A DNA stretch of 49,031 bases, from positions 1 to 49,031 of the forward strand of contig DASUMJ010000217.1 of the NCBI GenBank assembly GCA_036277775.1, read 5' to 3'. Every line of letters starts with the position of its first letter. Position 1 is the stretch's first letter. Source of the DNA: Candidatus Limnocylindrales bacterium (GTDB taxonomy: Bacteria > Chloroflexota > Limnocylindria > Limnocylindrales > CSP1-4). Made by a program: the position numbers and the translations under genes. Shown piece by piece: positions 274 to 22,121 of this stretch. The notes below the pieces were generated by a model. It was not told where the DNA came from and made no database searches. It saw nothing but the letters and a program-made list of their open reading frames with translations.

Positions 274-349
274 TGTCGACGCTCCGCGCGGCGCGAGGCG
301 CCCCCGACGACGGACGTGACACGGGACCACCGCCCCGGAGGGACGACGC

Positions 350-1201: not shown

Positions 1202-1219
1202 CCCGGAGGACCTGGTCCG

Positions 1220-2131: not shown

Positions 2132-2178
2132 ACGGCGCATCACCCGATTCTGAGCCGGCAGGCAGGAGTGCCGCTGCG

Positions 2179-4368: not shown

Positions 4369-5168
4369 ACGCGGCCACCGTGCCCCGCGGGATCGGCGTG
4401 ACGCTGGCCGACGGCCGCTTCGTCGTGACGGGTGCCTCGAGCGGACTTGGCGCGGCGATCGTCCGGCACCTCGCCCTCCTCGGCGCACCGATCGTGGCAG
4501 CGGCACGCCGGATCGACCGGCTGGAGGCCCTCGCGGCGGAGCTCGAGGCGGCCCCCGGTCGGGTCGTCCCGGTGCGGGCCGACGTCACCGACGAGGACGA
4601 CGTGGCGGCGCTCATCGAGGCGGCAGTGAAGGCCCTCGGCGGCATCGATGTCCTCGTGAACAACGCCGGCAGCGAGGTCCAGGGCCCGATCGACACGCTG
4701 CCGGACGAGGCCTTCGAGGGCATGCTGAGGGCGAACGTCCTGAGCATCGTGCGCGTGACGCGGGCCGCCCTCCCGGCGCTCCGCGAATCCCGCGGGATGG
4801 TCGTCAATCTCGGCTCGACGGTCGTCAGCCGCCCTCCTCGCAACCGCTTCGGCTACGTCGCGAGCAAGGGTGCGGTCGAGGCGATGAGCCGGGCCCTCGC
4901 GCTCGACCTCGGCCGGGAAGGCATCCGGGTCAACGTCATCCGGCCCGGGATCATCCCGTCCGAGCTCCGGGGCCTGTCCGAGGACGAGGAGCGGGCTCGT
5001 TTCGCGACCGGGGTCGCGTTCGGACGGCAGGCCCTGTCGGTGGTCGGGGATGGTCGTGACGTCGCCGAGGCAGTGGCATGGCTCGCCGGACCGGGCGGGC
5101 GCTGGATCACGGGGGCCGTGATCGACGTGGACGGGGGCTACGTGCTTGGGGCGGCTGACGCGATCTGA
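4365..5168 (+). CDS. SDR family oxidoreductase
   Basis: The GTG start overlaps the upstream stop (GTGA at 4365-4368). Motifs are 'VVTGASSGLGAAIVRHL', 'NNAG' and the YxxxK 'YVASKGAVEAM'. Confidence 0.9.
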   Translation: MNAATVPRGIGVTLADGRFVVTGASSGLGAAIVRHLALLGAPIVAAARRIDRLEALAAELEAAPGRVVPVRADVTDEDDVAALIEAAVKALGGIDVLVNNAGSEVQGPIDTLPDEAFEGMLRANVLSIVRVTRAALPALRESRGMVVNLGSTVVSRPPRNRFGYVASKGAVEAMSRALALDLGREGIRVNVIRPGIIPSELRGLSEDEERARFATGVAFGRQALSVVGDGRDVAEAVAWLAGPGGRWITGAVIDVDGGYVLGAADAI

Positions 5169-5210: not shown

Positions 5211-6266
5211 TCAGTCCGGGGCGACGATGATCTTGATGGCGCCGCTGCCTCGGTCGTTGAACGTGCTGAGGGCCTCCTGGTAGGCCGACAGCGGGAAGCG
5301 ATGGGTGATGACCTCGTTGACCCGGATCCGCCCCTGCTCCACGAGGGGCATGACGCGGCGCATCTCGCCGGCCGTCGCCCGTGATCCGACGAGCTCCAGC
5401 TCGTCGAGGACGAGCCGCTGCAGTGCGATCTCCACACCGCTGGTCGGGATGCCGACGGCAGCGCAGCGGCCGCCCCGGCGGAGCATGCGGATCGCCCAGC
5501 CGATCGTCTCGGGCGTCCCGGCGCACTCAAGCACGACGTCCGCCCCGACACCGGTCAGCTCCCGAACGGCTTGGACCGGGTCGCCGTCGGCAGTGTCCAC
5601 GGTCTCGGAGCCCATGGCGGCCGCCTTGGCAAGTCGCCCGCCACGGCCGACGACGATGACCCGTGCGGCACCCCGGACGCGGGCGGCGTCGGCTCCGAGC
5701 AGTCCGATCGCACCAGCGCCGGTGATGGCGACGGTGTCGCCCGGGGAGATCCCGCCGCGGTTCGCGACGTGGAGGGCGATCGACGCCGGGTCGACGACCG
5801 CGCCGGCCTCGAAGCTCAGGCCATCGGGGAGCCGGAAGATCGTCTTGATCCCCTGGACGACGTACGTCGCGTCGGCGCCCTGGACGGTGTGGCCGTACTG
5901 CTTGTGGAGTCCCGCCACCCCGTAGTTCTCGCAGAGGTTGTAGCGGCCCTCGACGCACTTCTGACAGGCGCCGCAGGCGTCGTGGCTGGTGCCCGCCACG
6001 CGGTCGCCCACCCGCCACCCGTACCGGTCGGCGCCGGGACCCAGCTCGACGAGCTCGCCGGCCCACTCGTGGCCCGGGGTGAACGGGAAGGCCGGCGGCC
6101 AGAAGCCCGGGTAGTCGCCGCGGATGAGATGGGCGTCGGTGCCGCAGATCGAGACCGCCCGGACCCGGGCTCGGACCTCGTTGAACCCGGGGCTCGGTAC
6201 CGGGACTTCCCGGATCTCGAAGCGGTTCGGCTCGAGGACGACGAGCGCCTCCATGGTCTCGGGCAC
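5211..6266 (-). CDS. Zinc-dependent alcohol dehydrogenase (MDR family, sorbitol/threonine-DH-like)
   Basis: It has the catalytic Zn motif 'GHEWAGELVELG', the structural Zn cysteines 'CGACQKCVEGRYNLC', and the Rossmann motif 'ITGAGAIGLLG'. Confidence 0.93.
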   Translation of the reverse strand: MPETMEALVVLEPNRFEIREVPVPSPGFNEVRARVRAVSICGTDAHLIRGDYPGFWPPAFPFTPGHEWAGELVELGPGADRYGWRVGDRVAGTSHDACGACQKCVEGRYNLCENYGVAGLHKQYGHTVQGADATYVVQGIKTIFRLPDGLSFEAGAVVDPASIALHVANRGGISPGDTVAITGAGAIGLLGADAARVRGAARVIVVGRGGRLAKAAAMGSETVDTADGDPVQAVRELTGVGADVVLECAGTPETIGWAIRMLRRGGRCAAVGIPTSGVEIALQRLVLDELELVGSRATAGEMRRVMPLVEQGRIRVNEVITHRFPLSAYQEALSTFNDRGSGAIKIIVAPD

Positions 6267-6281
6267 GGGCCGGCCTCCTCC

Positions 6282-7169
6282 TCAGACGACGGCGACGGGG
6301 TCGACCATCGACCCGGTCGCGCCGCGGATCTTCACGGGCAGGGCGACGAACAGGAACTCGTAAAGTCGCTGGCTTGCGAGCGCCTCGAGGTCGAGGCTCT
6401 CGAGCAGGTAGATCCCGTTCTCGATGAGCAGCAGCGTGTGGACCGGCTGGGGGTTGCCGGTGGGGCCGGGATCCGGGGCCGGCTGGACCTCGTAGGTCTC
6501 GGTGTCCGTCCCGGTCGCGACGATCCCGCGTTCCAGGAGCCAGCGCGCGGCGGAGATGTCCGGGCCGGGCGTCCGGTGGGCGGCCATCCGCTCGGCGTCG
6601 GGCCACAGCGACATGTAGCCGGTCCGGATGACCACGACGTCCCATGGCCGGACCTCGACACCTTCCGCGTCCGCGATCGCCTCCAGCTCCGCCGCGTCGA
6701 TCGGGGCGCCCCTCGGCAGGCAGGCCAGGCCCCGGTGGCCCGCCGCGTCGAGGAGCACGCCCCGGGTGAAGAACGGCGGCAGCGTCGAGGCGTCGAGGTG
6801 GTTCGGGCCGAAGTCCGTCAGGTGGTCGTCTGCCCGTCCCCCGCCGAACCAGTGCATGTCCTCGCCGACGGTCATGTGGGCGAGCGCGTCGACGTGAGCG
6901 CCGGAGTGGGACGTCGCCATGACGTACTCGGCCATGTAGCCGAGACCCGCGTCGTTGACTGGTCCCCATGGGCGGGCGCCGGTGACGCGGATGCCGCGCG
7001 GGGTCCGGGCGTTGAGGACCTGGAACGGCGGGTGCCCGGGGAAGAGCGGCATGCCGGGGAACCGCGCCGCGGCGAGCGAGATCGTCCGGCCCTCGCGGAC
7101 GAGACCCGCGGCGCGCACGACCTGGTCGGCGGGGAGTCGGCCGATCGGGCCGATGTCCGGGGCGGTCAT
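6282..7169 (-). CDS. Cyclase family protein (kynurenine formamidase / isatin hydrolase-like metal amidohydrolase)
   Basis: It has the HxGxHxDxxxH motif 'HSGAHVDALAHM'. The start overlaps the stop of the Mo subunit gene (ATGA at 7166-7169). Confidence 0.88.
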   Translation of the reverse strand: MTAPDIGPIGRLPADQVVRAAGLVREGRTISLAAARFPGMPLFPGHPPFQVLNARTPRGIRVTGARPWGPVNDAGLGYMAEYVMATSHSGAHVDALAHMTVGEDMHWFGGGRADDHLTDFGPNHLDASTLPPFFTRGVLLDAAGHRGLACLPRGAPIDAAELEAIADAEGVEVRPWDVVVIRTGYMSLWPDAERMAAHRTPGPDISAARWLLERGIVATGTDTETYEVQPAPDPGPTGNPQPVHTLLLIENGIYLLESLDLEALASQRLYEFLFVALPVKIRGATGSMVDPVAVV

Positions 7170-9457
7170 GCGTCGTCCTCCGTGTGCTCCTCCGACCCGG
7201 ACGCGGCGCCGGAGTCGTCCCGATCGCGCTCCCGGAGTGCCCGCCAGACGCGCTCCGGCGTCAGCGGCAGGTCACGAATCCTGATCCCCGCTGCATCACG
7301 GACCGCGCCTGCCACGGCGGCCGAGACGCACAGCAGCGCGCCCTCGCTCATGCCCTTGGAGCCGTACGGCCCGGGGCCATCCTCGTTCTCGACGAAGTCA
7401 CTCACCATCTCGACGGGCAGGTCCATGCTCGTGGGAATGCGATAGTCGATCGCCCCGAGGTTCCGGATCCGGCCGGCGTCGTCGAGGATGTAGTGCTCCA
7501 TCAGGGTGTGTCCCAGGCCCTGGATCGCGGCGCCCTCGTCCTGCATCCGGACCTGCAGCGGGTTGATCGCCTTGCCCACGTCGGACACCGTCACGTGGCG
7601 GGTGAGCGTCACGTCGCCGGTCGCCTCGTCGACCTCGGCCTCGATGGCCGTGCAGTTGAACTCGAAGAACGCCGGTGCCCCGCCGAGCGGGTGTTCCGGC
7701 GCGGCGTCGAGCCGTGTCTCGCCGACCCCGATGAGCTCCCCGCCGAGCCGGCCCAGGCCGGGCCCGAGGAGCTCGCGGATCGGGATCTCCCGATCGGGCA
7801 GGACGGCGACACCTCGCTCAACCCGGATCGCCGCCTCGTCCACGCCGTGGACCCGGGCGGCGATCGCCCGGAGCCGCGCCTGAATGTCGCGGCAGGCGGC
7901 AAGGACGGCATTGCCCATCAGGACCGTGGAGCGGCTGGCCGAGGTCTGCTGGTCGTACGGAACGACCGCCGTGTCGCCCATGACGACCGTCACCCAGTCC
8001 AGCGGCGCGCCGAGCTCGTCGCCGGCGATCTGGGCGAGGACCGTCCGGGCACCCTGGCCCATGTCGGAGGTCCCGGCGTAGACCACGACGCTGCCGTCGG
8101 CGAGCAGCCGGACGGTCGAGTACGAGAGGCCCGTCGTGGGGCCGGACTTGATGCCGACGGCGATCCCGCGGCCGCGGCCGCGAACCGCGGGCCGGTCCCA
8201 GCCCACGAGCTCGGCGGCCCGCCGGACCACCTGCGCCCAGTCGCCGTCGGCCGGCGTGTCCCAGGGAATGAACGCCTCCCCCTTCCGGGCGAGGTTCATG
8301 AGCCGGATCTCCAGCCGATCGATGCCGAGACGGAGGGCGGCCTCGTCGAGGTTCGACTCGACCGCCCAGTTGACCTGGGGGTTGCCGAATCCACGGAAGG
8401 CCGTGGACGGCACGGTGTGGGACAGGATCGGCCGGGCGACGACCCGCGCGGACGGCATCCGGTAGGGCCCCGCGGCAAGGTAGCTGCCCTTGCCCACGAC
8501 CCGGTCGGCGATGTCGACGTACGCCCCGATGAGGTAGTCGGCCCTGACGTCCTGGAAGCAGAGGGTGCCGTCGAGCCTGAGGCCCGTGCGGACGTGGACC
8601 TCGGCCGCCGCGCGGCGGACGGCCAGGAACGTCTCCTCGAGGCTCAGCACGAGCCGGACCGGCCGGCCGGCCCGGAGGGCCATGAGCGCGACGAGCGGCT
8701 CGTACTTGGCGTGCTGCTTGCCGCCGAAGCCGCCGCCTGGGTCAGGGGCGAAGACACGGACCCGCGAGAGCGGCAGGCCGGTCAGCCCGGCGATGATCCG
8801 CTGCAGCCAATTCGGGTGCTGGATCGTGCTCCAGACGGCGATCCCGCCGTCGTCCGGCGCCGCGATGAAGGCGTGCGGCTCGATCGCGAAGTGGGTCACC
8901 ATCGGGAACGTCCAGGTCCCCTCGACGACGACGTCGGCCGGCGTCGAGTCGACGTCGCCCCAGCCGACCCGGTGTTCGCGGAGCACGTTCGTCCCGGCGA
9001 GCGGGTCGCCCGGTCGCAGGGACGGATCCTGGACGAGCGGCGCGCCGGGGGCGAGGGCCGCGGCGACGCTCGTCACCGCCGGCAGCTCCTCGTAACGGAC
9101 CGTCACGAGCGCGGCCGCGGCCTCCGCCGCGTCGCGGGACTCGGCGGCCACGGCCGCAACCGGTTGCCCGTGGTAGGTGATCTCGCCGTCGGCGAGGACG
9201 GGCCGGTCCCGGTACTGGGGCCCGAACCGCGGCATCGGTGCGGGCAGGTCGGCCGCGCTCATCACGAGGTGGACACCCGGCACCGCCCGGGCTGCAGCCG
9301 CGTCGATCCCGAGCACCCGTGCGTGGGCGACGGGAAGCGTGACGAGCTTCGCGTGGAGCTCGCCTGGGAGGTGGATGTCAGCGACGTACGCCTGGCCGCC
9401 CGTCACCCGGCCGATGCCGCCGACTCGGTTCGGCGAGCCTCCGACGCGGGCCGTCAT
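7166..9457 (-). CDS. Xanthine dehydrogenase family, molybdopterin-binding large subunit
   Basis: 763 aa. The N-terminus 'NRVGGIGRVTGGQAYVADI' is typical of aldehyde oxidase/XDH a/b hammerhead domains. The three-subunit gene order is conserved, and the start overlaps the FeS subunit stop (ATGA at 9454-9457). Confidence 0.93.
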   Translation of the reverse strand: MTARVGGSPNRVGGIGRVTGGQAYVADIHLPGELHAKLVTLPVAHARVLGIDAAAARAVPGVHLVMSAADLPAPMPRFGPQYRDRPVLADGEITYHGQPVAAVAAESRDAAEAAAALVTVRYEELPAVTSVAAALAPGAPLVQDPSLRPGDPLAGTNVLREHRVGWGDVDSTPADVVVEGTWTFPMVTHFAIEPHAFIAAPDDGGIAVWSTIQHPNWLQRIIAGLTGLPLSRVRVFAPDPGGGFGGKQHAKYEPLVALMALRAGRPVRLVLSLEETFLAVRRAAAEVHVRTGLRLDGTLCFQDVRADYLIGAYVDIADRVVGKGSYLAAGPYRMPSARVVARPILSHTVPSTAFRGFGNPQVNWAVESNLDEAALRLGIDRLEIRLMNLARKGEAFIPWDTPADGDWAQVVRRAAELVGWDRPAVRGRGRGIAVGIKSGPTTGLSYSTVRLLADGSVVVYAGTSDMGQGARTVLAQIAGDELGAPLDWVTVVMGDTAVVPYDQQTSASRSTVLMGNAVLAACRDIQARLRAIAARVHGVDEAAIRVERGVAVLPDREIPIRELLGPGLGRLGGELIGVGETRLDAAPEHPLGGAPAFFEFNCTAIEAEVDEATGDVTLTRHVTVSDVGKAINPLQVRMQDEGAAIQGLGHTLMEHYILDDAGRIRNLGAIDYRIPTSMDLPVEMVSDFVENEDGPGPYGSKGMSEGALLCVSAAVAGAVRDAAGIRIRDLPLTPERVWRALRERDRDDSGAASGSEEHTEDDA

Positions 9458-9984
9458 CGGGCTGCGTCCGGATCGCTGGCCGGCCCGTTTAGGAGCGTGT
9501 CATCAGCATGCCCGGCGGCGGCCAGCACGGCGCCCACGATCTGCTCGTAGCCGGCGCAGCGACAGAGATTGCCGGCGAGGCCCTCCTGGACCTCCGCGAC
9601 CGTCGGGTCGGCGATCCGGTCGAGGAGGTCCTGGGCCGCCATCAGTTGCCCAGGGATGCAGAAACCGCATTGGGCCGCGCCGCGGTCGAGGAAGGCCTGC
9701 TGAAGCCGGCTCAGCCTGGCCCCGTCCGCCAGGCCCTCGACCGTCGTCACGCTTCCGCCGTCGGCCTCGACCGCGAGGACGAGGCACGAGTCCACGATCC
9801 GGCCGTCCAGGCTGACGGTGCAGGCCCCGCACTCTCCGACGAGGCAGCACTCCTTCGTTCCGGTCAAGGCGAGATCGTCGCGGAGGACCTCAAGGAGCGT
9901 ATGGTGGGCGGCCACTTCGACGGCCCGACCCCGGCCGTTGACCGTCAGCTCGATCGCCACGCGGGTTTCTCCGGGCGCCGTCAC
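9454..9984 (-). CDS. (2Fe-2S)-binding small subunit of the Mo-hydroxylase
   Basis: Trimmed to the GTG at 9984, which overlaps the FAD subunit stop (GTGA). Two 2Fe-2S motifs are present: 'CLVGECGACTV' and 'CGFCIPG...CRCAGY'. Confidence 0.93.
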   Translation of the reverse strand: MTAPGETRVAIELTVNGRGRAVEVAAHHTLLEVLRDDLALTGTKECCLVGECGACTVSLDGRIVDSCLVLAVEADGGSVTTVEGLADGARLSRLQQAFLDRGAAQCGFCIPGQLMAAQDLLDRIADPTVAEVQEGLAGNLCRCAGYEQIVGAVLAAAGHADDTLLNGPASDPDAAR

Positions 9985-10859
9985 GGCCGCGCCCCTCCCC
10001 CGCCCGCCGCGAGCCGCGCGACCGCGGTCGCGAGCGCCCGGCGCGCCAGGACCCCGAGCATCGCGAGGCGGTACTCGGGGCTTGCCCGCATCGATCGGGG
10101 CGAGGGGCTGGCTCCTGCGAGCAGCTGCTCGAGGACGACGTCGCGGGCGGCGGCCGTCGCCGTCGGATCGGCCAGCGTGCCGCTCGGGTCGACGCCGAGC
10201 ACCGGGCGGGGCCCGAGGCTGCCGTACGCAAGGCGCGTGACCCCGGCCCCGTCCACCGAGCAGGCGAGCGTGACCGAGGCGAGATCGTGGCCCCGCCGGC
10301 GGGTCCGGCGGACGTGCGTCGATCCGAGGGGGCCGGCGGGCAGCGGCAGCTCGATGCTCGTGACGAGCTCCCCGGGACGGAGGGTCGTCTCGCCGGATCG
10401 GACGAAGAGCTCGTCGATCGGGACCCGCCGCGCACCGTCCGGGCCCACCGCCACGATCTCGGCGCCGAAGACGAGAAGGGCCGGTGCAGTATCGGCGGCC
10501 GGCGAGGCGTTGCAGAGGTTCCCGGCCAGCGTCGCCCGGTTCCTGATCTGAACGGAGCCGACGACCATCGCCGCTTCGGCCAGGGCCGTGAACCGCTGCC
10601 GGATCCGCTCGTCCGCGCCGATGTCGGTCATGACCGCCGTCGCCGGCACCACGAGCCGACCGCCGATCTCGCGGATGGCCGGGTCGAGCTCCGGGATCCG
10701 CTTCAGGTCGACGACGACGGCCGCGCGGGCCGAGCCGTCGCGGAGGCGGATGATGAGATCCGTTCCGCCGGCCAGGACTCGGGCATCGGGCCCGTGGGTG
10801 GCGAGCAGCGCCACGGCCTCGGCGATGCTGGCGGGGCGGGCGTAGCTGAACGGTCGCAT
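9981..10859 (-). CDS. FAD-binding medium subunit of the Mo-hydroxylase (CoxM/XdhB-like)
   Basis: 'MRPFSYARPASIAEAVALL...RVLAGGTDLIIRLR' is a typical FAD_binding_5 N-terminus. The start shares 1 nt with the upstream gene's stop (TGATG at 10859). Confidence 0.9.
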   Translation of the reverse strand: MRPFSYARPASIAEAVALLATHGPDARVLAGGTDLIIRLRDGSARAAVVVDLKRIPELDPAIREIGGRLVVPATAVMTDIGADERIRQRFTALAEAAMVVGSVQIRNRATLAGNLCNASPAADTAPALLVFGAEIVAVGPDGARRVPIDELFVRSGETTLRPGELVTSIELPLPAGPLGSTHVRRTRRRGHDLASVTLACSVDGAGVTRLAYGSLGPRPVLGVDPSGTLADPTATAAARDVVLEQLLAGASPSPRSMRASPEYRLAMLGVLARRALATAVARLAAGGGGARP

Positions 10860-11761
10860 CAGCCGGCCGAGAGGACCTTCTCGACCTCGTCGAGCAGCAC
10901 CTGCGGCGTGGCCGCCCGGATGAAGAAGAACGGCCGCTCACAGAAGCGGGCGACGAACTCCGCCCGTCGCCGCCGGAGGGCGTCGGTGTCGAGGAGGGGC
11001 ATGACGTGGCCGGGGGCCAGCAGCTCGTTCGTCAGGAAGTAGTTCTGGAGGGAGTGCAGGAACTGGAACTGGGCCTCGAATGGGATGAGCCGGTTGGTGG
11101 CGGGGTCGAAGTTGCCATCGATGGCGGGCACGACCACGAGGTCGATCTCGGGCGTCCCGTCGTAGAAGCCCCAACTCGGCATGTCGCCCCAGAACTTCTC
11201 CACGCCTCGGTTCGGTGCGGCCTTGTCGGACCGCTCGGTCCCCTCCGTCCGCTTGACGAGGAACGGCTCGACCGAGCCCATGACGGCCCGTCCCGCCTCG
11301 TCGATCACGGTCGTCTCGGATGCGACCTGGAGGCCGCCCCGGAGCCCGGTCTCGATCAGGCCCATGCTCTTGCCGTGGTTGGACTCGCCGCCGAGGAAGA
11401 GGATCGTTCGGCCCTGGTAGTGGACCGCCGCGCTGTGCGATGGGTGCAGGCCCGCGGCCTCCATCCGAAGAGCCAGGACCGCCACGATCACCTTCTGGAT
11501 CGGGCCCGCCGGCCAGTCGCCGCTGAACCTCACGACCCCCGCGTCGTATGTGATGTCCTTCGGGCCGTCGACGAGCCACACGATGTCCGGCGTGGGAAGG
11601 GTCACCTCCGGGGAGATCCGGACGTCGGCAAGTCGGTAGTTGAGGAAGCTGAGGTCGTCGAGGACGTGGGCCCTCGGCGGCCCGCCGACGACGTCGACCC
11701 GGAGGCGGGCCGCGCCCGCCGAGAACTCTTCGGTGAGCTGGGGCTGGACCTGGGCGTTCAT
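10859..11761 (-). CDS. Hypothetical P-loop protein, HPr kinase/phosphorylase C-terminal-domain-like
   Basis: Start set to ATG 11761 (AAAGGAA RBS). 'ILFLGGESNHGKSMGLIETGLRGGLQVASETTVID' parallels the HprK Walker-A region (GxSGxGKSExALELxxRGHxLxADD). No other recognisable domain. Confidence 0.65.
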   Translation of the reverse strand: MNAQVQPQLTEEFSAGAARLRVDVVGGPPRAHVLDDLSFLNYRLADVRISPEVTLPTPDIVWLVDGPKDITYDAGVVRFSGDWPAGPIQKVIVAVLALRMEAAGLHPSHSAAVHYQGRTILFLGGESNHGKSMGLIETGLRGGLQVASETTVIDEAGRAVMGSVEPFLVKRTEGTERSDKAAPNRGVEKFWGDMPSWGFYDGTPEIDLVVVPAIDGNFDPATNRLIPFEAQFQFLHSLQNYFLTNELLAPGHVMPLLDTDALRRRRAEFVARFCERPFFFIRAATPQVLLDEVEKVLSAG

Positions 11762-11783
11762 CGATTCCTTTCGCGTGGTGCGG

Positions 11784-12527
11784 TCAGGCGGGCTGCCTGG
11801 TGAGCTGGGGCAGGGACGCCGCATCGCCGTCGCCGCGCGCGTCCGATGGGGGCGTTACGGCGTCGCCGGTCCGGCTGGTCGCCCAGTGGCGGGCGAGTCC
11901 CGCCGCCGCGTCCTGGAAATGGCGGACGATGACATCGGCCGCCCGGCCCGCCTCGCGGCGGCGAAGGGTCTCCAGGATCACGAGGTGGCCGTCGGCGATC
12001 TGCCGGCGATCGGCGCCGGAGGCGCCGATGGTGATGTAGGTGCGGGAGAACGGCTCCAGCGTCCGCCAGACGCGGACAAGCGTAGCGTTGCCGGCGGCCT
12101 CGACGATCCGCCCGTGGAACGCGGCATCCGCGGTGGCTTCCGCGTAGACGTCGCCCGCGTCGGCCGCGTCCTGCATCCGTCCGATATCGACGGCGAATGC
12201 CTCGAGGTCGTCGTCGCCGAGCCGGGGGATTGCCAGCTCGATCGCGAGCGACTCGAGCGCCGCGCGGACCGCGAAGGCCTCGAGGAGCTCGTCCGCCGAT
12301 GGGCGGCGGACGCGAGCTCCCCGAAATGCCGCGGTCACGACAAGGCCAAGACCCTCCAGGTCGCGGAGCGCCTCCCGGACCGGCGCCTGGCTCGTGCCGA
12401 GCTCCCGGGCGACCCGGGTCTCGACGATCCGGGCGCCCGGCGGGTAGCGGCCGTCGAGGATCGCCTGGAGGAGGCGGTCCTTGACCTGGTCGCTGAGGAC
12501 GCTCCGCGAAACAGCCTGGCGAGTCAT
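11784..12527 (-). CDS. GntR family transcriptional regulator (FadR-type, FCD effector domain)
   Basis: Trimmed to ATG 12527. The wHTH is 'RIVETRVARELGTSQAPVREALRDLEGLGLVV', followed by a helical C-terminal domain. The gene is embedded in the catabolic operon. Confidence 0.9.
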   Translation of the reverse strand: MTRQAVSRSVLSDQVKDRLLQAILDGRYPPGARIVETRVARELGTSQAPVREALRDLEGLGLVVTAAFRGARVRRPSADELLEAFAVRAALESLAIELAIPRLGDDDLEAFAVDIGRMQDAADAGDVYAEATADAAFHGRIVEAAGNATLVRVWRTLEPFSRTYITIGASGADRRQIADGHLVILETLRRREAGRAADVIVRHFQDAAAGLARHWATSRTGDAVTPPSDARGDGDAASLPQLTRQPA

Positions 12528-12537
12528 CGTCGCGACG

Positions 12538-14316
12538 TCAGTCGCGCATCCCGACCGGGGCCACCGTCGCCACGGCGGCAAGGATCTCGACGACCCCGGT
12601 GCTCCCGTCCACGCGGATCTTGTCGCCGGTCTTGATCCGTGTCGTCGCGACGGACGTGCCGACGACGGCCGGGATTCCGTACTCGCGGGCCAGGACGGCC
12701 GGGTGCGAGACGGTTCCGCCGGCGTCCGTGACGACCGCCGTGATCTTCCCGTACAGAACCTGCCAGGCCGGGTTCGTCATCTCGCAGACGAGGACCTCGC
12801 CGACCTGGAGGCTGTCGAACTCGGCCTCGGACATGACGACGCGGGCCGTGCCCTCGACGACGCCGGGCGAGCCGGCGATGCCCTTGACCTTGCCGAACTC
12901 CTGTTCCTTCGAGCGGTAGAACTTGTCCGGGAAGCCCCACAGGTTCAGGTACGGGAAGGCGAGCTGGGTGGCGGTCACGGTTCCGACCCAGTCCTTCGGC
13001 CGGATCTTCTCGGCCTCGGCCCGCTTGGCCCGGGCTGCGGCCACGATCGCCCGGCCGTCGATGCCGGTCGGGTTGCCGATGAAGGCCCGCAGCTCGTTGT
13101 AGTGGAAGAGGATCACGTCGTCCGGGCGATCGAGAACGCCCATCTCGACGAGCTTCTCGCCGATGGCCATGAGGACGAGCCGGACGTGGGCGTTGGCGCC
13201 CTGGTCGATGTAGAAGTGATGATCCGGGGTGAGCGGGGCCATCTTCAGGTTGATCTCGTTGGCCGCACGCATCTCCTCGAGCGCCTCGCCCTCGAGACCC
13301 TCGAGGATCTCGACCGAGGCCGCGTCGATGTCGGCCTTGAGCTTCGCGACTGCAGCCGGGTAGTCGTAGCCCGACGCGTACTGATCGCGGACGAGCTGGA
13401 CGACCGGGGTCATGTCCTCCCGGAAGCTCGGGAAGATGAACTCGTGGCTCCAGACGGCGTGCCAGCCGAACTCCTTCTGGTACGGCACGACCCGCTCGTC
13501 GATGAACCGCCGCCCACGCTCGCTCGCCTGGAGCCGCGGGACGATCTCGGTCGCGGACGGGCTGTCGAAGGCCTTCGCCAGCTCGGCGTCGCCGCGGACC
13601 TCCTCCTGCATCTGCCAGAGGGACCGGATCTTGTCCCAGTTGCGGTCGTTGGCCGAGCTCTGGAGCCGGCCCAGCAGGACCTCGTCGATCTTGCCGTGGG
13701 TCTTCTCCATGACCGCCCGGAGGTTGAGCGTCGCGCTGAGCTGCGCGAAGTTCAGCATCCAGTGGATCTTCCAGTGGCGGTCGTGCATGTCGATGGCGTC
13801 CTCGAGGAGGACGGCCGTGTCGGCCAGGCTGAGCTCGGCCTTCTTGTCGAGCATGCCCTCGATGTAGTCGAAGTTCCGCTGCATCTCGGGCACGAACCGC
13901 GTCCGCCACCAGTGGACGAAGTTGTGGCCGTAGACGGGCAGGACCGCGCCCAGGTACGCCCCGATCTTGCCTGCGTAGCCGGCGTCGTCGCCCTGGGGAA
14001 CGATCGCGCGCGTCGCCAGGTCGTACTCCTGCGTCACGAGCTCGAGCCCGGCTTCGGCCGGGATCGCCGCGGTGTACAGGTAGCCGTTGATCTTCTTGTA
14101 GATCCAGTCCGTCGCGAACGGCGTCCCGAAGCGGCGGAACATGTGGTCGCAGGACAGCCACCAGCCGCCGATGTCCTCGTACATCGGGCTGAGCGGCTTC
14201 GGGCAGTGGAGGTCGTCGTAGACCCAGAAGAGCAACTTCTCGGTCTCCGACGTCCAGGCGATGGGGAATTCCTCGGTCCCGAGGTACTGGTCGAGGATCT
14301 CTTCCTTCAATGGCAC
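12538..14316 (-). CDS. PEP-utilising-enzyme family protein: large helical N-terminal domain plus C-terminal phosphohistidine swivel domain (PpsA / rifampin-phosphotransferase-like, no ATP-grasp)
   Basis: Start set to GTG 14316 (GAAGGAG 9 nt upstream). The C-terminal 'GSPGVVEGTARVV...VLVCEMTNPAW...TDAGGTVSHPAVLAREYGIPAVVG' is the mobile His domain. The N-terminal ~480 aa have no nucleotide-binding motif. Confidence 0.85.
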   Translation of the reverse strand: MPLKEEILDQYLGTEEFPIAWTSETEKLLFWVYDDLHCPKPLSPMYEDIGGWWLSCDHMFRRFGTPFATDWIYKKINGYLYTAAIPAEAGLELVTQEYDLATRAIVPQGDDAGYAGKIGAYLGAVLPVYGHNFVHWWRTRFVPEMQRNFDYIEGMLDKKAELSLADTAVLLEDAIDMHDRHWKIHWMLNFAQLSATLNLRAVMEKTHGKIDEVLLGRLQSSANDRNWDKIRSLWQMQEEVRGDAELAKAFDSPSATEIVPRLQASERGRRFIDERVVPYQKEFGWHAVWSHEFIFPSFREDMTPVVQLVRDQYASGYDYPAAVAKLKADIDAASVEILEGLEGEALEEMRAANEINLKMAPLTPDHHFYIDQGANAHVRLVLMAIGEKLVEMGVLDRPDDVILFHYNELRAFIGNPTGIDGRAIVAAARAKRAEAEKIRPKDWVGTVTATQLAFPYLNLWGFPDKFYRSKEQEFGKVKGIAGSPGVVEGTARVVMSEAEFDSLQVGEVLVCEMTNPAWQVLYGKITAVVTDAGGTVSHPAVLAREYGIPAVVGTSVATTRIKTGDKIRVDGSTGVVEILAAVATVAPVGMRD

Positions 14317-14419
14317 CGCAGTCTTCTCCTTCGGCTCGTGGCTCGCGTCGCCGGCCGGGCGACGTCTTCCGGCTCGTCCCTCGTCCGCGGCCCTGGCCGC
14401 GGCCCGCATCCGCCTCCCT

Positions 14420-15676
14420 TCAGCACCTCCCGGCCACGGCCGCCGGCAGGGGTTCGGCCCACACGCGATAGAGGTCGTCGAGGCGCTCGGCCATCGCGCG
14501 CCCGAACGCCGGGTCGTTGATATCGGTGGCCACCTCGACCACCTCGATGCCCGGGCGAAGCCCTGCCTTCAACTCCCGGGTCAGGGCTGCGTCGGCAGCC
14601 GGATCGTGGAACGGCCGCCCGGGGGCATCGAGCATCGACAGCCCGTCGCCTGGGACGAACACGACCAGCGGGCCGGTCGCCTCGTTCAGCTTCCGGGCCA
14701 GCACGCGACCGAGCTCCGCGCACTCCGCCTCGCTGGTCCGCATGAGCGTGACCGCGGCGTTGTGCTCCACGAGGGTGCGGCCGCGGAACCGGCGCGGGAC
14801 GGTGTCGAGCGGCCCGAAGTTCACCATGTCGAGGGCGCCGAGAGATACCACCTGCGGCAGTCCGAGTGTGCCGGCCGCTTCGAGCCGGTCGGGGCCGGCG
14901 GAGCAGACCCCGCCGACGAGGTCGTCGGCCAGCTCGCTCGTGGTCACGTCGAGGACACCGGTAATGACGCCTGAACGGATGAGGTCCTCCATGGCGCGTC
15001 CGCCCGTGCCGGTCGCATGGAAGACGAGGACCTCGTAGCCGCGCGACTCGAGGACCTCGCGGGCGGCGGTCACGCAGGGTGTCGTCACGCCGAACATCGT
15101 CGCCCCGATGCATGGTCGGCCGTCGGGTCGGTCGTCGGCTCGCGAGGCTTGCCGGGCCATGCCGGCGGTGGCGGCGGCAGCGTTGGCGAGGACCCGGCGC
15201 GAAATTCGGTTGAGCCCGGCGATGTCGACGATCGAGTGCATGAGCGTGACGTCACTCGTGCCGACATACGGCCGCGTGTCGCCGGAGGCCATCGTCGAGA
15301 CGAGGAGCTTCGGGACACCGATCGGGAGGGCGCGCATGGCCGCGGCCACGAGCGCGGTGCCGCCGGAGCCGCCGAGCCCGGCGATGGCGTCGAGTCGGCC
15401 TTCAGCATGGAGCTGCCGGACGACCTCGATCGCACCGCGTGTCATCGACGCAATCGCGTGCCCCCGGTCGCCGCCGGCAGCGAGGGCGGTCCGGTCGGCC
15501 CCGCCGGCGGCTGCCACGACGTCCGACGAGACGTCCGCAAGCGATGACGGTTCGAGGACACCCGCGTCCACGAGGATGGTGTCGCATCCGGCCCTGCGAA
15601 CCTCGTCCCGCACGAAGCGGAACTCGGGACCCTTGGTATCGAGCGTGCCCAGGAGGACGACCGTGGCCACGTGCAT
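14420..15676 (-). CDS. UPF0261 / Tm-1-like ATP-binding domain protein
   Basis: 'MHVATVVLLGTLDTKGPEFRFVRDEV' matches the family N-terminus (GTxDTKG). An alternative GTG start at 15670 lies 6 nt after GGAG. The 817-aa ORF in the track is an artefactual extension that runs antisense through the transaldolase gene. Confidence 0.85.
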   Translation of the reverse strand: MHVATVVLLGTLDTKGPEFRFVRDEVRRAGCDTILVDAGVLEPSSLADVSSDVVAAAGGADRTALAAGGDRGHAIASMTRGAIEVVRQLHAEGRLDAIAGLGGSGGTALVAAAMRALPIGVPKLLVSTMASGDTRPYVGTSDVTLMHSIVDIAGLNRISRRVLANAAAATAGMARQASRADDRPDGRPCIGATMFGVTTPCVTAAREVLESRGYEVLVFHATGTGGRAMEDLIRSGVITGVLDVTTSELADDLVGGVCSAGPDRLEAAGTLGLPQVVSLGALDMVNFGPLDTVPRRFRGRTLVEHNAAVTLMRTSEAECAELGRVLARKLNEATGPLVVFVPGDGLSMLDAPGRPFHDPAADAALTRELKAGLRPGIEVVEVATDINDPAFGRAMAERLDDLYRVWAEPLPAAVAGRC

Positions 15677-15700
15677 CTCCAGCTCGCCACGGGACGCACA

Positions 15701-15750
15701 TCGATAATCGATTGTCGATGACAGTAGCCCCGATGCCGGGGACGCGTCAA
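15701..15750 (-). promoter_or_regulatory. Promoter plus operator box B for the minus-strand nine-gene operon
   Basis: Read on the minus strand: TTGACG (15750-15745), 18-nt spacer, TACTGT (15726-15721), then the 18-bp near-palindrome TCGACAATCGATTATCGA (15718-15701), which has one mismatch. Confidence 0.65.
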
Positions 15751-15776: not shown

Positions 15777-15806
15777 TTGCCACTGAACAATCGATGATCG
15801 ATGATA
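15777..15806 (+). promoter_or_regulatory. Promoter plus operator box C upstream of transaldolase
   Basis: TTGCCA (15777-15782) is followed by the box TCGATGATCGATGATA (15791-15806), which overlaps the expected -10 position. The box contains the 13-bp palindrome ATCGATgATCGAT. Confidence 0.55.
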
Positions 15807-15835: not shown

Positions 15836-16933
15836 ATGGTGGTCGCGGCGGCGCTCGACAGCCCCCTCCTGCAGATGACCCAGGAGACGCGCACCCAGTA
15901 CTGGAACGACTCCTGCGCGGTGGACGAGCTCGCCTACGCCGTCGAGCGCGGGGCCACCGGTGCGACGTCGAACCCCAGCATCGTCCTCGAGGTCCTCCGG
16001 AAGGAGCGAGCGTACTGGGCCCGCCGCGTCGAGCAGCTCGCCGAAGCGGAGCCGACCGCCTCGGAGGTGGACCTCACCTGGGCAGTCGTCGAAGAGATGG
16101 CTGTGCGCGGCGCCGCCGTGCTCGGGCCGGTCCATGAGCGGACCAAGGGCAAGGCCGGCCGCCTCTCGCTGCAACTCAACCCTGCCAACCACCGCAACCC
16201 GAAACGGATGGTCGAGCAGGCCGTTCGATTCCACGGTCTCGCGCCGAACATGCAGGTGAAGTTCCCCTGCACGGCCGCGGGCATCGTCGGGATGGAGGAG
16301 GCGACGGCCCAGGGCATCAGCATCAACTCGACCGTCAGCTTCACGGTGCCCCAGGCGCTCGCCGCCGCGGAGGCTGTGGAGCGCGGCCTCACCCGTCGCG
16401 AGTCCGCCGGCCTCGACACGTCCTCGATGTCGCCGATCGTGACGATCATGATCGGCCGGCTCGACGACTGGTTGAAGGTCGTCGTGGAACGTGACCGCCT
16501 GTCCGTCCACCCCGACGCGGTGAACTGGGCCGGGATCGCGGCGTTCAAGCGGACGTATGCCCTCTTCCGCGAGCGGGGCTACCGATCCCGCTTGCTCGCG
16601 GCGGCCTATCGTCACCGGCTCCACTGGACCGAGCTCGTCGGCGGCGACGTGAGCTTGACGATGCCCCATGCCTGGCAGGTCCGGTTCAACGCCAGCGGCA
16701 TCCGGCCCGAGCCACGGATGGACGTCCCGGTCGACGCCGACCTCATCGAGGATCTCGAGCAGCGGATCCCCGACTTCCGTCGGGCCTACGAGCCCGATGG
16801 GCTGGCGCCCGAGGCGTTCGAAGGCTTCGGGGCGAGTGCCCGGACACTCCGCGCCTTCATTGCCGCCTATCACGACCTCCAGGGCGCGATCCGGGACCTG
16901 GTCCTCCCCGATCCCGACGCTCCGAGCCGCTGA
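15836..16933 (+). CDS. tal: Transaldolase family protein
   Basis: Start set to ATG 15836 (GGAGGTG 6 nt upstream). It has the 'GATGATSNPSIV' motif and the Schiff-base lysine context 'MQVKFPCTAAGI'. Confidence 0.9.
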   Translation: MVVAAALDSPLLQMTQETRTQYWNDSCAVDELAYAVERGATGATSNPSIVLEVLRKERAYWARRVEQLAEAEPTASEVDLTWAVVEEMAVRGAAVLGPVHERTKGKAGRLSLQLNPANHRNPKRMVEQAVRFHGLAPNMQVKFPCTAAGIVGMEEATAQGISINSTVSFTVPQALAAAEAVERGLTRRESAGLDTSSMSPIVTIMIGRLDDWLKVVVERDRLSVHPDAVNWAGIAAFKRTYALFRERGYRSRLLAAAYRHRLHWTELVGGDVSLTMPHAWQVRFNASGIRPEPRMDVPVDADLIEDLEQRIPDFRRAYEPDGLAPEAFEGFGASARTLRAFIAAYHDLQGAIRDLVLPDPDAPSR

Positions 16934-16958: not shown

Positions 16959-17004
16959 CGCTCCCGGCTTGCAAATTGCGGCCCTTGACCTACTATCCTC
17001 GATA
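16959..17004 (+). promoter_or_regulatory. Promoter plus operator box D upstream of the ABC transporter operon
   Basis: TATCCT (16984-16989) is fused to TCGATAATCGATGATC (16989-17004), a 21-nt string identical to site A. The candidate -35 TTGCAA (16959-16964) gives a long 19-nt spacer. Confidence 0.65.
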
Positions 17005-17091
17005 ATCGATGATCCGCCTCACCGGCGGAGATCGACGGTCAGTTCGTCCCAGAGTGGTGCGTCCCCTGCTCCGTTCGGAGGCGGTCGCGCG

Positions 17092-17205
17092 ATGACCAAC
17101 CGGCCAGTGTTCGATGGGGGCGACACGCGGAGCCCCATCGATCCCGCAGCGCCCTTGGCGGGCGGCGGGGAGAGGCCACGGCCACCGGTGCCGGCGGCCG
17201 GCTGA
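17092..17205 (+). CDS. Candidate 37-codon upstream ORF / leader peptide
   Basis: ATG 17092 has GGAGG 10 nt upstream. Its TGA stop overlaps the permease ATG (TGATG at 17203-17207). GC3 is high, but the peptide is Pro/Gly-rich and unrecognised. Confidence 0.3.
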   Translation: MTNRPVFDGGDTRSPIDPAAPLAGGGERPRPPVPAAG

Positions 17206-18077
17206 TGGAGTTCATCACCCAGAGCCTCGTCATCGGGCTCACCGAGCACGCCCCGCTGGTCCTTGCCGCGATCGGCTTCGCCCTGCTCTACCGCCTCACC
17301 GGTCTCATCAACGTCGCCTACTCGGAGACGATCACGCTCGGCGCGTACTTCGGGATGTGGGCCAACACGACGTTCGAGCTGAACTTCTACACGGTCCTCC
17401 TTCCCGCGGGGCTGCTCGCCGGGCTCGTGAGCGTGGCGAGCTATCTGCTGGTCTTCCGGCCCGCCAAGCAGCGCGGGGTGGGCGTGCTGGAGCTCATCAT
17501 CATCTCGTTCGGGCTGTCGATCTTCCTGCGGCACGGCCTCCAGTTCATCTTCGGCTACCCCGTCCGTTTCTACGACGTCCCGCCACCCGACACGATCCCG
17601 GTTCTCGGCGTCGGCGTCAGCTCGTTCCGGCTGCTCGCCCTCGTCAGCGTCGCCGTGCTGGCACTGCTGCTCTACCTGTTCATCCAGCGTTCCAGCCTCG
17701 GCCTCAAGATCCGGGCCCTGGCCAGCGACGAGGGCCTGGCCCAGGTGAGCGGCATCCGGCCGCTCGTGGTGACGGTCCTGATCTGGTTCATCGCCGGTGT
17801 CGCGGGCGGGCTGGCCGGCGCCTTCTACGGCGTCGGGTCGAACGTTGCGCCGCTGCTCGGCTGGCGCCAGTTCCTGATGATCCTGATGGTCGCGCTCGTG
17901 GGCGGAACGTGGGGGCTGGGCGGGGTCATCCTCGTCGGGGTCGGCACGAGCGTGGCGCTGGCTGCCATGGCGCTCCAGTTCGACCAGGTCCTGTATGCGC
18001 AGCTGGTGCTGATCGTCGCGTTCGTCGTCGTCCTGAAGATCCGTGGGCGGCGGGTCGCCGAGACGGCGAAGGTGTAG
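17205..18077 (+). CDS. Branched-chain amino acid-type ABC transporter permease (LivH-like)
   Basis: 290 aa, polytopic and hydrophobic. 'ITQSLVIGLTEHAPLVLAAIGFALLYRLTGLINVAY' is typical of the BPD_transp_2 family. Confidence 0.9.
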   Translation: MEFITQSLVIGLTEHAPLVLAAIGFALLYRLTGLINVAYSETITLGAYFGMWANTTFELNFYTVLLPAGLLAGLVSVASYLLVFRPAKQRGVGVLELIIISFGLSIFLRHGLQFIFGYPVRFYDVPPPDTIPVLGVGVSSFRLLALVSVAVLALLLYLFIQRSSLGLKIRALASDEGLAQVSGIRPLVVTVLIWFIAGVAGGLAGAFYGVGSNVAPLLGWRQFLMILMVALVGGTWGLGGVILVGVGTSVALAAMALQFDQVLYAQLVLIVAFVVVLKIRGRRVAETAKV

Positions 18078-18081
18078 GCAG

Positions 18082-20525: not shown

Positions 20526-20564
20526 CGTACCGCGCAAGAGTTAGCAAGGATGAGGAGGAACGGA

Positions 20565-22080: not shown

Positions 22081-22121
22081 AGTCGGCGACCCACCGGTCA
22101 GGTGGATGGCGAGGTGATCGG

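Follow-up and report, generated by a model that had tools for sequence, protein, structure and literature searches.

A conserved, operator-linked gene cluster joining a molybdenum oxidoreductase to a putative split dikinase in Limnocylindrales, with rearranged versions in other bacteria and archaea

Phosphorylation has recently emerged, in a growing number of cases, as the opening step of aromatic breakdown under aerobic conditions; examples are CreHI, HpeHI/AcvAB and MarK. With the characterised two-component dikinases HpeHI/AcvAB (acetovanillone), CreHI (4-cresol) and PpsAB (phenol), phosphorylation of the phenol is the first catabolic step; HpeH, CreH and PpsA share a TxxGGxxxH-type motif and an architecture of substrate-binding and swivel-His domains, and carboxylation is known to follow phosphorylation for phenol and acetovanillone (PMC12167813). 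MarK (Saro_1862 of Novosphingobium aromaticivorans) is a UPF0261 kinase that phosphorylates phenolic aldehydes and ketones in an ATP-dependent manner, to date the single activity demonstrated for its family (PMC12624787). One case has been reported, without a mechanism, of a molybdenum (Mo) hydroxylase that needs such a dikinase: HpdA of Ensifer adhaerens HP1 converts 3-hydroxypyridine to 2,5-dihydroxypyridine only upon co-expression of orf9 ('pyruvate-phosphate dikinase') and orf10 ('PEP-utilizing protein mobile subunit', where PEP is phosphoenolpyruvate), and knock-out of either gene abolishes growth, yet no phosphorylated intermediate was detected and its authors regard the mechanism as unresolved (bioRxiv 10.1101/2020.01.08.898148). 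Here we describe a gene cluster in a 49,031-nucleotide (nt) stretch of DNA from Candidatus Limnocylindrales bacterium (contig DASUMJ010000217.1; hereafter the window), which carries a Mo enzyme of the xanthine dehydrogenase (XDH) family together with two putative dikinase components and a P-loop protein with the predicted fold of PEP carboxykinase (PEPCK) and HprK. We tentatively read the cluster as an operator-linked, phosphorylation-dependent catabolic regulon for a hydroxylated aromatic or N-heteroaromatic compound, in which the Mo oxidoreductase would depend on the dikinase.

Layout, operators and conservation of the cluster

Coding frames in the window (68-75% GC) were picked through analysis of third-position GC content, and gene identities were taken from Pfam and NCBIfam profile scans of the window proteins. 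A preliminary description, made from the sequence alone, had placed nine minus-strand genes at positions 5211-15676 behind one operator-bearing promoter. The profile scans returned the same nine genes with the same domains, the label of the P-loop protein apart (discussed below), and the junctions agreed to the nucleotide: the FAD-subunit and P-loop genes overlap by 1 nt at 10859 (TGATG), three further pairs overlap by 4 nt (9981-9984, 9454-9457 and 7166-7169), and gaps of 15, 22 and 10 nt separate the alcohol dehydrogenase (ADH) and cyclase genes, the P-loop and GntR genes, and the GntR and swivel-His genes, respectively. The junction between the UPF0261 and swivel-His genes, put earlier at about 100 nt, measures 103 nt (14317-14419). 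A consensus scan found no promoter- or terminator-like site above chance inside the nine-gene operon. Upstream of the UPF0261 gene, the expected promoter and operator were both found, as a promoter-like site (TTGACG at 15750-15745, a spacer of 18 nt, and TACTGT at 15726-15721) and, just downstream of it, an operator-like, near-perfect palindrome of 22 bp (15699-15720; CATCGACAATC|GATTATCGATG).

The unit exceeds these nine genes, since the operator motif marks four further promoter regions. The operator core (C/A)TCGATNATCGAT recurs at the four operator-like sites of Table 1, and with up to two mismatches the motif has 26 matches in the window against 9.2 expected, a number reached by no shuffle. 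The five best matches (0-1 mismatch) are all intergenic and lie in five promoter regions, and the motif occupies corresponding positions in many related loci. The bounds of the preliminary description were thus too narrow, leaving outside not only these four regions but also an ATP-grasp gene (2179-4368) that encodes a short pyruvate, phosphate dikinase (PPDK). This gene was missed because it is inverted in the window, where it belongs to an operon (350-5168, plus strand) convergent with the nine-gene operon, whereas in most relatives it lies co-oriented inside the latter. Two further operator-marked units are an ABC importer, whose first permease gene spans 17205-18077, and a cupin-transketolase operon (22122-24342) in which consecutive genes overlap by 4 nt. 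The GntR/FCD protein encoded within the nine-gene operon is probably the repressor of all five promoters, acting through ATCGATNATCGAT operators. A housekeeping role was considered for the TAL-like gene and ruled out, as its product scores 108 bits against an NCBIfam transaldolase equivalog cut-off of 367 and an operator lies upstream. Beyond the transketolase genes lie a second GntR/FCD regulator (24360-25205, minus strand), a DeoR regulator (25553-26530) and a 2-oxoacid dehydrogenase with a fused E1 alpha-beta (26559-28889) and an E2 (28909-30183), which we left out of the regulon because no clear operator motif precedes them.

To follow the cluster in other genomes, we took the best 80 of 457 genomes with a relative of the P-loop protein (pattern scan, one genome per species), almost all of them labelled Chloroflexota/Limnocylindrales, and scored gene presence by tblastn with the window proteins, counting presence at the 51 loci with full 10-kb flanks (Table 1). 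The usual order is Swivel-GntR-P-loop-FAD-FeS-Mo-(cyclase)-(ADH)-short PPDK-(SDR2), and the core from Swivel to Mo is kept in 48-51 of the 51 loci. The gene-neighbourhood comparison that the preliminary description had proposed as a check was hereby run: the synteny, which is far beyond chance, held, and rearranged sets appeared in other lineages. Two loci in bins labelled otherwise, L082 (NZ_JBFHHB010000086.1, labelled Actinotalea sp.) and L031 (labelled Candidatus Deferrimicrobiaceae), carry cluster genes and a P-loop protein of 71-85% identity, which could reflect mis-binning or recent transfer.

The same families are found together in other orders across phyla and domains, and this re-association is the strongest evidence that they form a functional unit. 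In Gaiellaceae (68% GC), a Swivel-GntR-Cyclase-PPDK_N-P-loop set adjoins a FAD-FeS-Mo-TAL operon, of which the TAL-like gene is the last, and an ABC system; identities to the window proteins are 64% for Mo, 56% for TAL, 56% for swivel and 53% for P-loop. A Nitrososphaerales archaeon (35% GC) has the swivel gene between FeS and Mo (FAD-FeS-Swivel-Mo), with SCP2-P-loop-PPDK_N divergent from it. On the megaplasmid of Thermomicrobium roseum DSM 5159 (NC_011961.1, TRD_RS09580-09660) the order is ABC-UPF0261-PEP hydrolase-GntR-cyclase-PPDK_N-HD-motif protein-FAD-FAH-ABM-swivel-Mo-FeS, without a P-loop protein and with 65% identity to the window for UPF0261, 44% for swivel and 40% for Mo. Thermococcus sibiricus (neighbourhood of WP_015849898.1) and its relatives bring together PPDK_N, cyclase, HMGL-like, P-loop, cupin, UPF0261 (33%) and swivel (35%) genes, and two tungsten AOR-family genes and a ferredoxin gene adjoin this kinase/cyclase/cupin set; the Thermococcus cupin has no detectable sequence similarity to that of the window, the two having only a fold family in common. 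A set of thiamine pyrophosphate-dependent E1/E2 genes lies near the Thermococcus version too. A subsurface lineage shows the order ABC-HMGL-Swivel-P-loop-Cupin-Cyclase, and in both the Thermococcus and the subsurface versions HMGL-like genes stand immediately before those for the swivel and P-loop proteins. The cyclase gene is present in the T. roseum, Gaiellaceae, Thermococcus and subsurface versions, and a branched-chain-type ABC transporter adjoins the T. roseum, Gaiellaceae and subsurface versions too.

Table 1. Features of the cluster in the window, with the number of full-flank loci (of 51) in which each gene was found
Feature	Position	Strand	Loci (of 51)	Basis and remarks
Operator-like site (CTCGATAATCGATGATC)	257-276	.		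Motif search; upstream of SDR1-MBL-short-PPDK-SDR2 operon
SDR-family dehydrogenase (SDR1)	350-1201	+	14, adjoining MBL	Pfam adh_short_C2; ATG 350 with GGAGG ribosome-binding site
Metallo-beta-lactamase-fold (MBL) hydrolase	1220-2131	+	26	Pfam Lactamase_B
Short PPDK, 729 aa	2179-4368	+	46	Pfam PPDK_N + PEP-utilizers; in the loci usually co-oriented, after cyclase or ADH gene
SDR-family dehydrogenase (SDR2)	4365-5168	+		Pfam adh_short; GTGA start overlaps short-PPDK stop
Zn-dependent alcohol dehydrogenase (ADH)	5211-6266	-	43	Pfam ADH_N + ADH_zinc_N; last gene of nine-gene operon
Cyclase-family (PF04199) metal hydrolase	6282-7169	-	41	Pfam
Molybdopterin-binding large (Mo) subunit, XDH family	7166-9457	-	48	Pfam
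2x[2Fe-2S] small subunit (FeS)	9454-9984	-	49	Pfam Fer2 + Fer2_2
FAD-binding medium subunit	9981-10859	-	50	Pfam FAD_binding_5 + CO_deh_flav_C
P-loop protein, 300 aa, PEPCK/HprK fold	10859-11761	-		Predicted structure; no Pfam/NCBIfam match
GntR/FCD (FadR-type) transcription regulator	11784-12527	-	51	Pfam GntR + FCD
Swivel-His protein, 592 aa	12538-14316	-	51	C-terminal PEP-utilizers domain is sole Pfam domain
UPF0261 (Tm-1/MarK-like) protein	14420-15676	-	28	Pfam UPF0261 + UPF0261_C; first gene of nine-gene operon
Second operator-like site, divergent intergenic region	15790-15802	.		Upstream of TAL-like gene
TAL/FSA-family (transaldolase-like) protein	15836-16933	+	24	Pfam TAL_FSA; divergent
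Operator-like site	16998-17010	.		Upstream of ABC importer genes
Branched-chain-amino-acid-type ABC importer	17205-21959	+		Pfam; 2 permeases, 2 ATPases, Peripla_BP_6 binding protein
Operator-like site	22064-22083	.		Upstream of cupin-transketolase operon, after TTGACC-17 nt-TATTCT promoter-like site
Cupin-like protein	22122-22490	+		Own sequence and Cupin_2 gene at same position in locus L003; not Pfam-based
Split transketolase-like N subunit	22487-23392	+	26	Pfam Transketolase_N, Transket_pyr, Transketolase_C over the two subunits
Split transketolase-like C subunit	23389-24342	+		Pfam, see N subunit

The putative dikinase, the P-loop protein and the UPF0261 protein

The swivel-His protein carries a PEP-utilizers domain (PF00391) at residues 505-574 and has no ATP-grasp domain. 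Its residues ~140-581 align to the NCBIfam models for PEP synthase, rifampin phosphotransferase (RPH), RedH (RedH/PigC) and PRK08296, it matches the RPH structures 5hv1/5fbs in the PDB, and its orthologues carry Pfam Rph_4th. The T/SxxGGxxxH catalytic-His motif reads TDAGGTVSH in this protein and TSTGGLASH in the short PPDK. The swivel-His protein shares 44% identity with its T. roseum counterpart, 35% along the whole length with that of Thermococcus, and 31%, over the C-terminal half only, with a CreH-like protein of Diaphorobacter. The phosphotransfer role that had been proposed for the swivel-His protein thus gained a definite homology, and these matches support its assignment as the PpsA/HpeH/CreH-like substrate-binding component of a split small-molecule dikinase.

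The ATP-grasp partner of the swivel-His protein, and with it the ATP-binding component of the split dikinase, is likely the short PPDK, which combines a PPDK-type ATP-grasp domain with a swivel-His domain of its own and a C-terminal domain of ~210 aa. It passes the NCBIfam model PRK05878 'pyruvate, phosphate dikinase' (487 bits against a cut-off of 456), the model from which that protein name derives. The AlphaFold2 (AF2) model of the C-terminal domain (pLDDT 90.5) consists of a winged helix and a helical bundle, of which only the winged helix is recognisable, and no significant structural neighbour was found. In Diaphorobacter the counterpart of this domain is a separate gene adjoining those for a short PPDK and a PEP-utilizing enzyme, and on Rhodococcus, Mycobacterium and Streptomyces plasmids it is encoded by a gene adjacent to the short PPDK gene. 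The Diaphorobacter sp. HDW4B plasmid set (L086 10236-15036) adjoins ring-hydroxylating dioxygenase genes and comprises four genes, whose products are a hypothetical protein of 304 aa, a PEP-utilizing enzyme, a winged-helix protein of 206 aa and a short PPDK; it shows the winged-helix protein as a recurrent third partner of short-PPDK systems.

The P-loop protein found no match in Pfam or NCBIfam even at E values up to 5, none to Hpr_kinase_C/N, no sequence match in the PDB and no homologue on 72,556 plasmids, and its family is small, with 176 clusters (50% identity) in a set of 1.8 billion representatives. It has a Walker A motif, GESNHGKS, and an invariant H109. Foldseek searches with its AF2 model (pLDDT 88) matched ATP-dependent PEPCK over the whole length (E 3e-7, TM 0.44), and 35 such whole-length PEPCK matches rank above HprK/P (1knx/1ko7/1kkl; E 3e-4 to 3e-3, ~115-190 columns), with modest TM-scores of 0.44 and 0.24 in these PEPCK and HprK/P comparisons. 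In profile searches, residues 75-140 align with the PEPCK active-site block GxW.xGxxxK...H...GxxxxGK[ST] (GTWYGGEMKK...MHCSAN...GLSGTGKT in PEPCK), with an E value of 0.028 against Thermus thermophilus PEPCK in hmmsearch, and one of 0.0024, at a probability of only 12%, against residues 198-263 of E. coli PckA in hhalign. K90, H109 and K131/S132 thereby correspond to K213, H232 and K254/T255 of PckA, while the pairing of E149 with D269 comes from manual alignment only. PEPCK is ~540 aa long compared with the 300 aa of the P-loop protein, and the local P-loop context is also similar to that of HprK/P. The term 'HprK-like' used in the preliminary description accordingly holds for the fold and the local P-loop motif and fails at the level of sequence family; by its predicted structure the protein is nearer PEPCK than HprK, and we regard it as a putative mini PEPCK/HprK-fold kinase from a small unannotated family.

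The P-loop protein could instead be a regulator, acting on the swivel-His dikinase as a bifunctional protein kinase/phosphorylase to turn it on or off, as PDRP and PSRP do for PPDK and PEP synthase, and HprK/P for HPr. Its gene was always accompanied by that of a swivel protein and/or an ATP-grasp protein in the loci examined, much as ppsR lies beside ppsA in E. coli, and its mean identity of 81% across the 80 loci, among the highest of the cluster (65% for the GntR regulator), would fit a protein-protein interface. The spacing of +18 from K131 to E149 equals what we take to be the P-loop-to-acidic spacing of HprK/P (K161 to D179), and the best Foldseek match to HprK/P, at E 3e-4, points the same way, although it is outranked by the whole-length PEPCK matches. 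A PSRP-like identity was tried and rejected: the profile comparison with E. coli PpsR was null (hhalign E 0.42, probability 0.1%), whereas PckA matches over the active-site block. The regulatory Thr of PPDK and PEP synthase, two residues before the catalytic His, is replaced by Val in the swivel protein and by Ala in the short PPDK. The C-terminal domain of PDRP does superimpose on HPrK/P (PMC9138534), but the authors of the HpeHI study argue that such dikinases are not regulated in this way (PMC12167813). On balance we consider a regulatory role, although it is a rival to be taken seriously, unlikely, if less so than any of the other alternatives weighed here. The nature of its part remains the least certain point of the favoured reading, under which the P-loop protein might, speculatively, transfer phosphoryl groups between an intermediate and ADP/ATP; we prefer this role because the PEPCK-like metal ligands appear to be conserved and because T. 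roseum has a putative phosphohydrolase in the same slot, the HD-motif protein. That protein (TRD_RS09610; L085 11112-11729) is hypothetical, is 205 aa long and carries an HD-like motif, LTHDMERH; its gene overlaps the start of the FAD gene, and it may be a non-homologous replacement of the PEPCK/HprK-fold protein, a phosphatase in the place of a kinase.

The UPF0261 protein keeps, by alignment, the ATP-site residues of MarK (9MPY) as D13/T14/K15, and its G196, H220 and H305 correspond to the conserved phenol-site residues G195, H219 and H304. At the position of H348 of MarK, which binds the ketone oxygen, the window protein has Leu, and its score against tomato Tm-1 (328 bits) exceeds that against MarK (245 bits), a member of the same two-domain family. 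In 30 of 36 relatives with a UPF0261 gene, a PEP-hydrolase-family gene, encoding a TIM barrel like the C-terminal part of Tm-1, lies between the UPF0261 and swivel genes; no homologue of it was found anywhere in the 49 kb. The gene that usually accompanies UPF0261 has apparently been lost from the window, and its absence accounts for the gap of about 100 nt between the UPF0261 and swivel genes. Present in about half of the relatives, UPF0261 would be an optional accessory module and is a candidate second phenol-type kinase.

The Mo enzyme, the proposed route and its alternatives

Among solved structures, the Mo subunit is closest to the alpha subunit of 4-hydroxybenzoyl-CoA reductase (4-HBCR; 1rm6, 318 bits), followed by quinoline 2-oxidoreductase, both of which rank above PaoC and MOP, two aldehyde oxidoreductases. 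Its NCBIfam matches include 4-hydroxybenzoyl-CoA reductase at 409 bits, far below the equivalog cut-off of 994, and archaeal glyceraldehyde dehydrogenase alpha at 327 bits. A reductive dehydroxylase of the 4-HBCR (HcrABC) type was ruled out by these low scores and by the FAD subunit: a Cys insert for a [4Fe-4S] cluster is typical of HcrB, the beta subunit of 4-HBCR, whereas the FAD subunit of the window (292 aa) has only two Cys and no such insert, and it matches NCBIfam 4hydrxCoA_B in split form, at a score far under the cut-off. On plasmids, the Mo subunit has its nearest homologue (41% identity) in Variovorax, within a cluster that also encodes an SRPBCC protein, an FAD monooxygenase, an isochorismatase, an alpha/beta hydrolase and a protein annotated as 'leucyl aminopeptidase', which we read as a maleamate-type pyridine pathway; homologues on E. 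adhaerens plasmids are only 33% identical. The cyclase-family protein has an intact HxGxHxDxxxH metal motif, and its PDB matches are 5ibz, an uncharacterised protein, and isatin hydrolase.

From the family memberships, translational coupling, common operator and synteny set out above, we infer the following route. The branched-chain-type ABC system would import the substrate; the ATP-grasp domain of the short PPDK would charge a swivel histidine, and the swivel-His protein would hand the phosphate to a ring hydroxyl, with the MarK-like UPF0261 kinase adding an optional second phosphorylation of the phenol type in some genomes. The Mo/FAD/2Fe-2S enzyme would then oxidise or hydroxylate the compound in a dikinase-dependent manner, by analogy with the requirement of Ensifer HpdA for orf9 and orf10, and the cyclase-family metal hydrolase would open the resulting lactam or ester. 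The fragments would be processed by the ADH, the two SDRs, the MBL hydrolase, the cupin and the TAL-like and transketolase-like enzymes, and the GntR/FCD protein would repress the five promoters. As the dikinase's partner, the PEPCK/HprK-fold kinase might, more speculatively, serve in phosphate removal, recycling or a second addition.

Several observations weigh against this route. No SRPBCC/COXG domain was found by Pfam in the scanned proteins of the operon and its neighbours (a COXG gene follows a distant P-loop homologue in locus L099), and no gene of the maleamate pathway (2,5-dihydroxypyridine dioxygenase, deformylase, amidase, isomerase) was identified among the scanned window genes. The short PPDK, unlike HpeI and PpsB, has its own swivel domain, which makes the phosphoryl route, perhaps from His to His, ambiguous. 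The T. roseum cluster has the HD-domain protein where the P-loop protein would be expected, so that the latter is not essential to the module. In Thermococcus no XDH-family gene was called in the 21 kb, and the AOR genes there weaken the case for heterocycle hydroxylation, suggesting aldehyde oxidation as the shared chemistry; the co-regulated TAL-like and transketolase-like enzymes, for their part, point to ketol or sugar-like intermediates.

The last two observations lead to a further alternative, in which the Mo enzyme is an aldehyde oxidoreductase and the regulon serves a carbonyl compound, either a phenolic aldehyde or ketone or one resembling a sugar, with the TAL- and transketolase-like enzymes cutting the ketol products of a phosphorylated route. 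Aldehyde oxidation is a reaction class common to the tungsten AOR and XDH families, and the Thermococcus arrangement would fit, except that its AOR and ferredoxin genes are possibly neighbours and not functional equivalents. The TAL-like gene lies inside the Mo operon of Gaiellaceae and is operator-marked in the window, where the cupin and split transketolase genes are co-regulated through an operator as well. The Mo subunit itself divides the evidence, its glyceraldehyde dehydrogenase score favouring an aldehyde substrate, while the ranking of 4-HBCR and quinoline oxidoreductase above PaoC and MOP, and the pyridine-ring cluster around the nearest annotated plasmid homologue, speak against one, as does a cyclase-family amidohydrolase within the conserved core. 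MarK and HpeHI do phosphorylate phenolic aldehydes and ketones (PMC12624787, PMC12167813). Weighing these points, we judge an aldehyde-oxidising regulon to be unlikely as well, a little more so than a regulatory P-loop protein.

More doubtful is the broader proposal that the swivel-His dikinase and the PEPCK-fold protein form a hitherto unrecognised enzyme pair common to Bacteria and Archaea, which would extend the logic of PEP synthase followed by PEPCK to an enol or aryl substrate other than pyruvate, and in which the dikinase would install a high-energy O-phosphate needed by a Mo or tungsten pterin oxidoreductase and the mini-PEPCK would return the phosphate to ADP, with or without carboxylation. 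If so, phosphorylation would act as a recyclable activating or protecting group, and the need of Ensifer HpdA for a dikinase would be explained despite the lack of an accumulating phosphorylated intermediate.

A series arrangement of the two proteins, resembling PEP synthase and PEPCK with a substrate other than pyruvate, would form an enol or aryl phosphate and then carboxylate it or substitute its phosphate, with recovery of ATP from ADP. Both proteins are homologous to PEP-handling enzymes, counterparts of the PEPCK Mn2+ ligands (K213/H232/D269) appear to be conserved in the P-loop protein, phenol and acetovanillone offer a precedent for phosphorylation followed by carboxylation, and the HMGL-like genes of the Thermococcus and subsurface versions belong to a DRE-TIM family of enolate and carboxyl-transfer enzymes. 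However, the sequence match covers only ~65 residues of a protein little more than half the length of PEPCK, the residues that bind CO2 and oxaloacetate could not be aligned, and neither a carboxylase-type partner nor an HMGL gene was found in the window. We consider this arrangement, which if true would be an ATP-economical activation or carboxylation step, improbable. That the genes are mere neighbours by lineage-specific inertia, as the predominance of one Chloroflexota class among the 80 loci and the coming and going of accessory parts (UPF0261, TAL, transketolase, ABC, SDR1/MBL) might suggest, is largely refuted by the translational coupling, the operator common to five promoters and the re-association of the same families in Gaiellaceae, Thermomicrobium, Nitrososphaerales and Thermococcus, and is very improbable.

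The remainder of the window holds genes for the small subunit, large subunit and cytochrome b of a [NiFe]-hydrogenase (31525-35662, minus strand; Pfam Oxidored_q6/NiFe_hyd_SSU_C, NiFeSe_Hases and Ni_hydr_CYTB), a phosphoketolase (XFP) and, after it, an acetate kinase, together a phosphoketolase route to acetate (35430-39136, plus strand), a GH63/MGH1-like glycoside hydrolase (39950-42055, minus strand), and an MttB-family (trimethylamine methyltransferase-like) protein followed by a bacterial serpin (44907-48221, plus strand). Two open reading frames had no Pfam match (30407-31663, plus strand, 418 aa; 39159-39821, minus strand, 220 aa), and scans of the window for Rfam families and tRNA genes gave no hits.

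Relation to described systems

The literature searched holds no description of this gene combination, of a PEPCK-fold partner, of its link to UPF0261 and to TAL- and transketolase-like enzymes, or of the distribution across domains. The preliminary description was right that the exact gene set is uncharacterised, while its idea of a kinase working with a Mo enzyme has direct precedent, since Ensifer HpdA, CreHI, HpeHI/AcvAB and PpsAB are known. Its suggestion of ATP-dependent phosphorylation of a hydroxylated aromatic or heteroaromatic intermediate proved a reasonable reading in view of the dikinase homology, the MarK precedent and the conserved UPF0261 residues. The N-heteroaromatic logic that it also invoked is borne out in part, by the pyridine (maleamate-type) clusters around plasmid relatives of the Mo subunit, but the Thermococcus AOR genes and the TAL- and transketolase-like enzymes allow aldehyde oxidation instead.

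A search of plasmids with the swivel, short-PPDK and Mo proteins as queries returned the T. roseum cluster, an HpeHI/AcvAB-type cluster in Rhizobium, sets of PEP-utilizing and short-PPDK genes in Diaphorobacter and Rhodococcus, and true PPDK genes in Rubrobacter and Azospirillum; the Mo query also returned maleamate-type clusters without dikinases, and no copy of the Ensifer 3hpd cluster was among the results. The pairing of a Mo enzyme with a dikinase is accordingly not an oddity: it recurs as a module, tightly conserved and linked by operators, in a class of Chloroflexota from soil and freshwater that is abundant and uncultured, with recognisable versions in Gaiellaceae, Nitrososphaerales and the cultured Thermomicrobium roseum and Thermococcus sibiricus. 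The comparison also exposes an unannotated family of putative PEPCK/HprK-fold kinases that accompanies the dikinase. Why a pterin oxidoreductase needs phosphotransfer enzymes is a question that can now be put to specific proteins and to organisms in culture, and the module could add to the enzymes available for selective phosphorylation or hydroxylation of aromatics.

Taken together, the cluster resembles HpeHI, CreHI and PpsAB in its separate components for substrate binding with a swivel-His domain and for ATP-grasp, in the catalytic motif and in its setting in a putative catabolic cluster, with RPH as a single-chain relative of the split dikinase. It differs from them in that HpeI and PpsB consist of an ATP-grasp only, whereas the short PPDK of the window keeps a swivel-His domain and a winged-helix/helical fusion, and in that, unlike in clusters of the HpeHI/PpsAB type, no biotin carboxylase or UbiD carboxylase follows. 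By its published description, the Ensifer 3hpd cluster, the nearest relative studied so far, is alike in having an XDH-family Mo/FAD/2Fe-2S enzyme together with a PEP-utilizing protein, a short PPDK, a GntR regulator and an ABC transporter. The 3hpd cluster has in addition a separate SRPBCC (CoxG-like) subunit (HpdA1-4) and the maleamate genes hpdB-E, which have no counterpart among the scanned genes of the window, whereas the window goes beyond 3hpd in its PEPCK/HprK-fold putative kinase, its UPF0261 protein, its cyclase hydrolase, its ADH, SDR and MBL enzymes, and its TAL-like and transketolase-like proteins.

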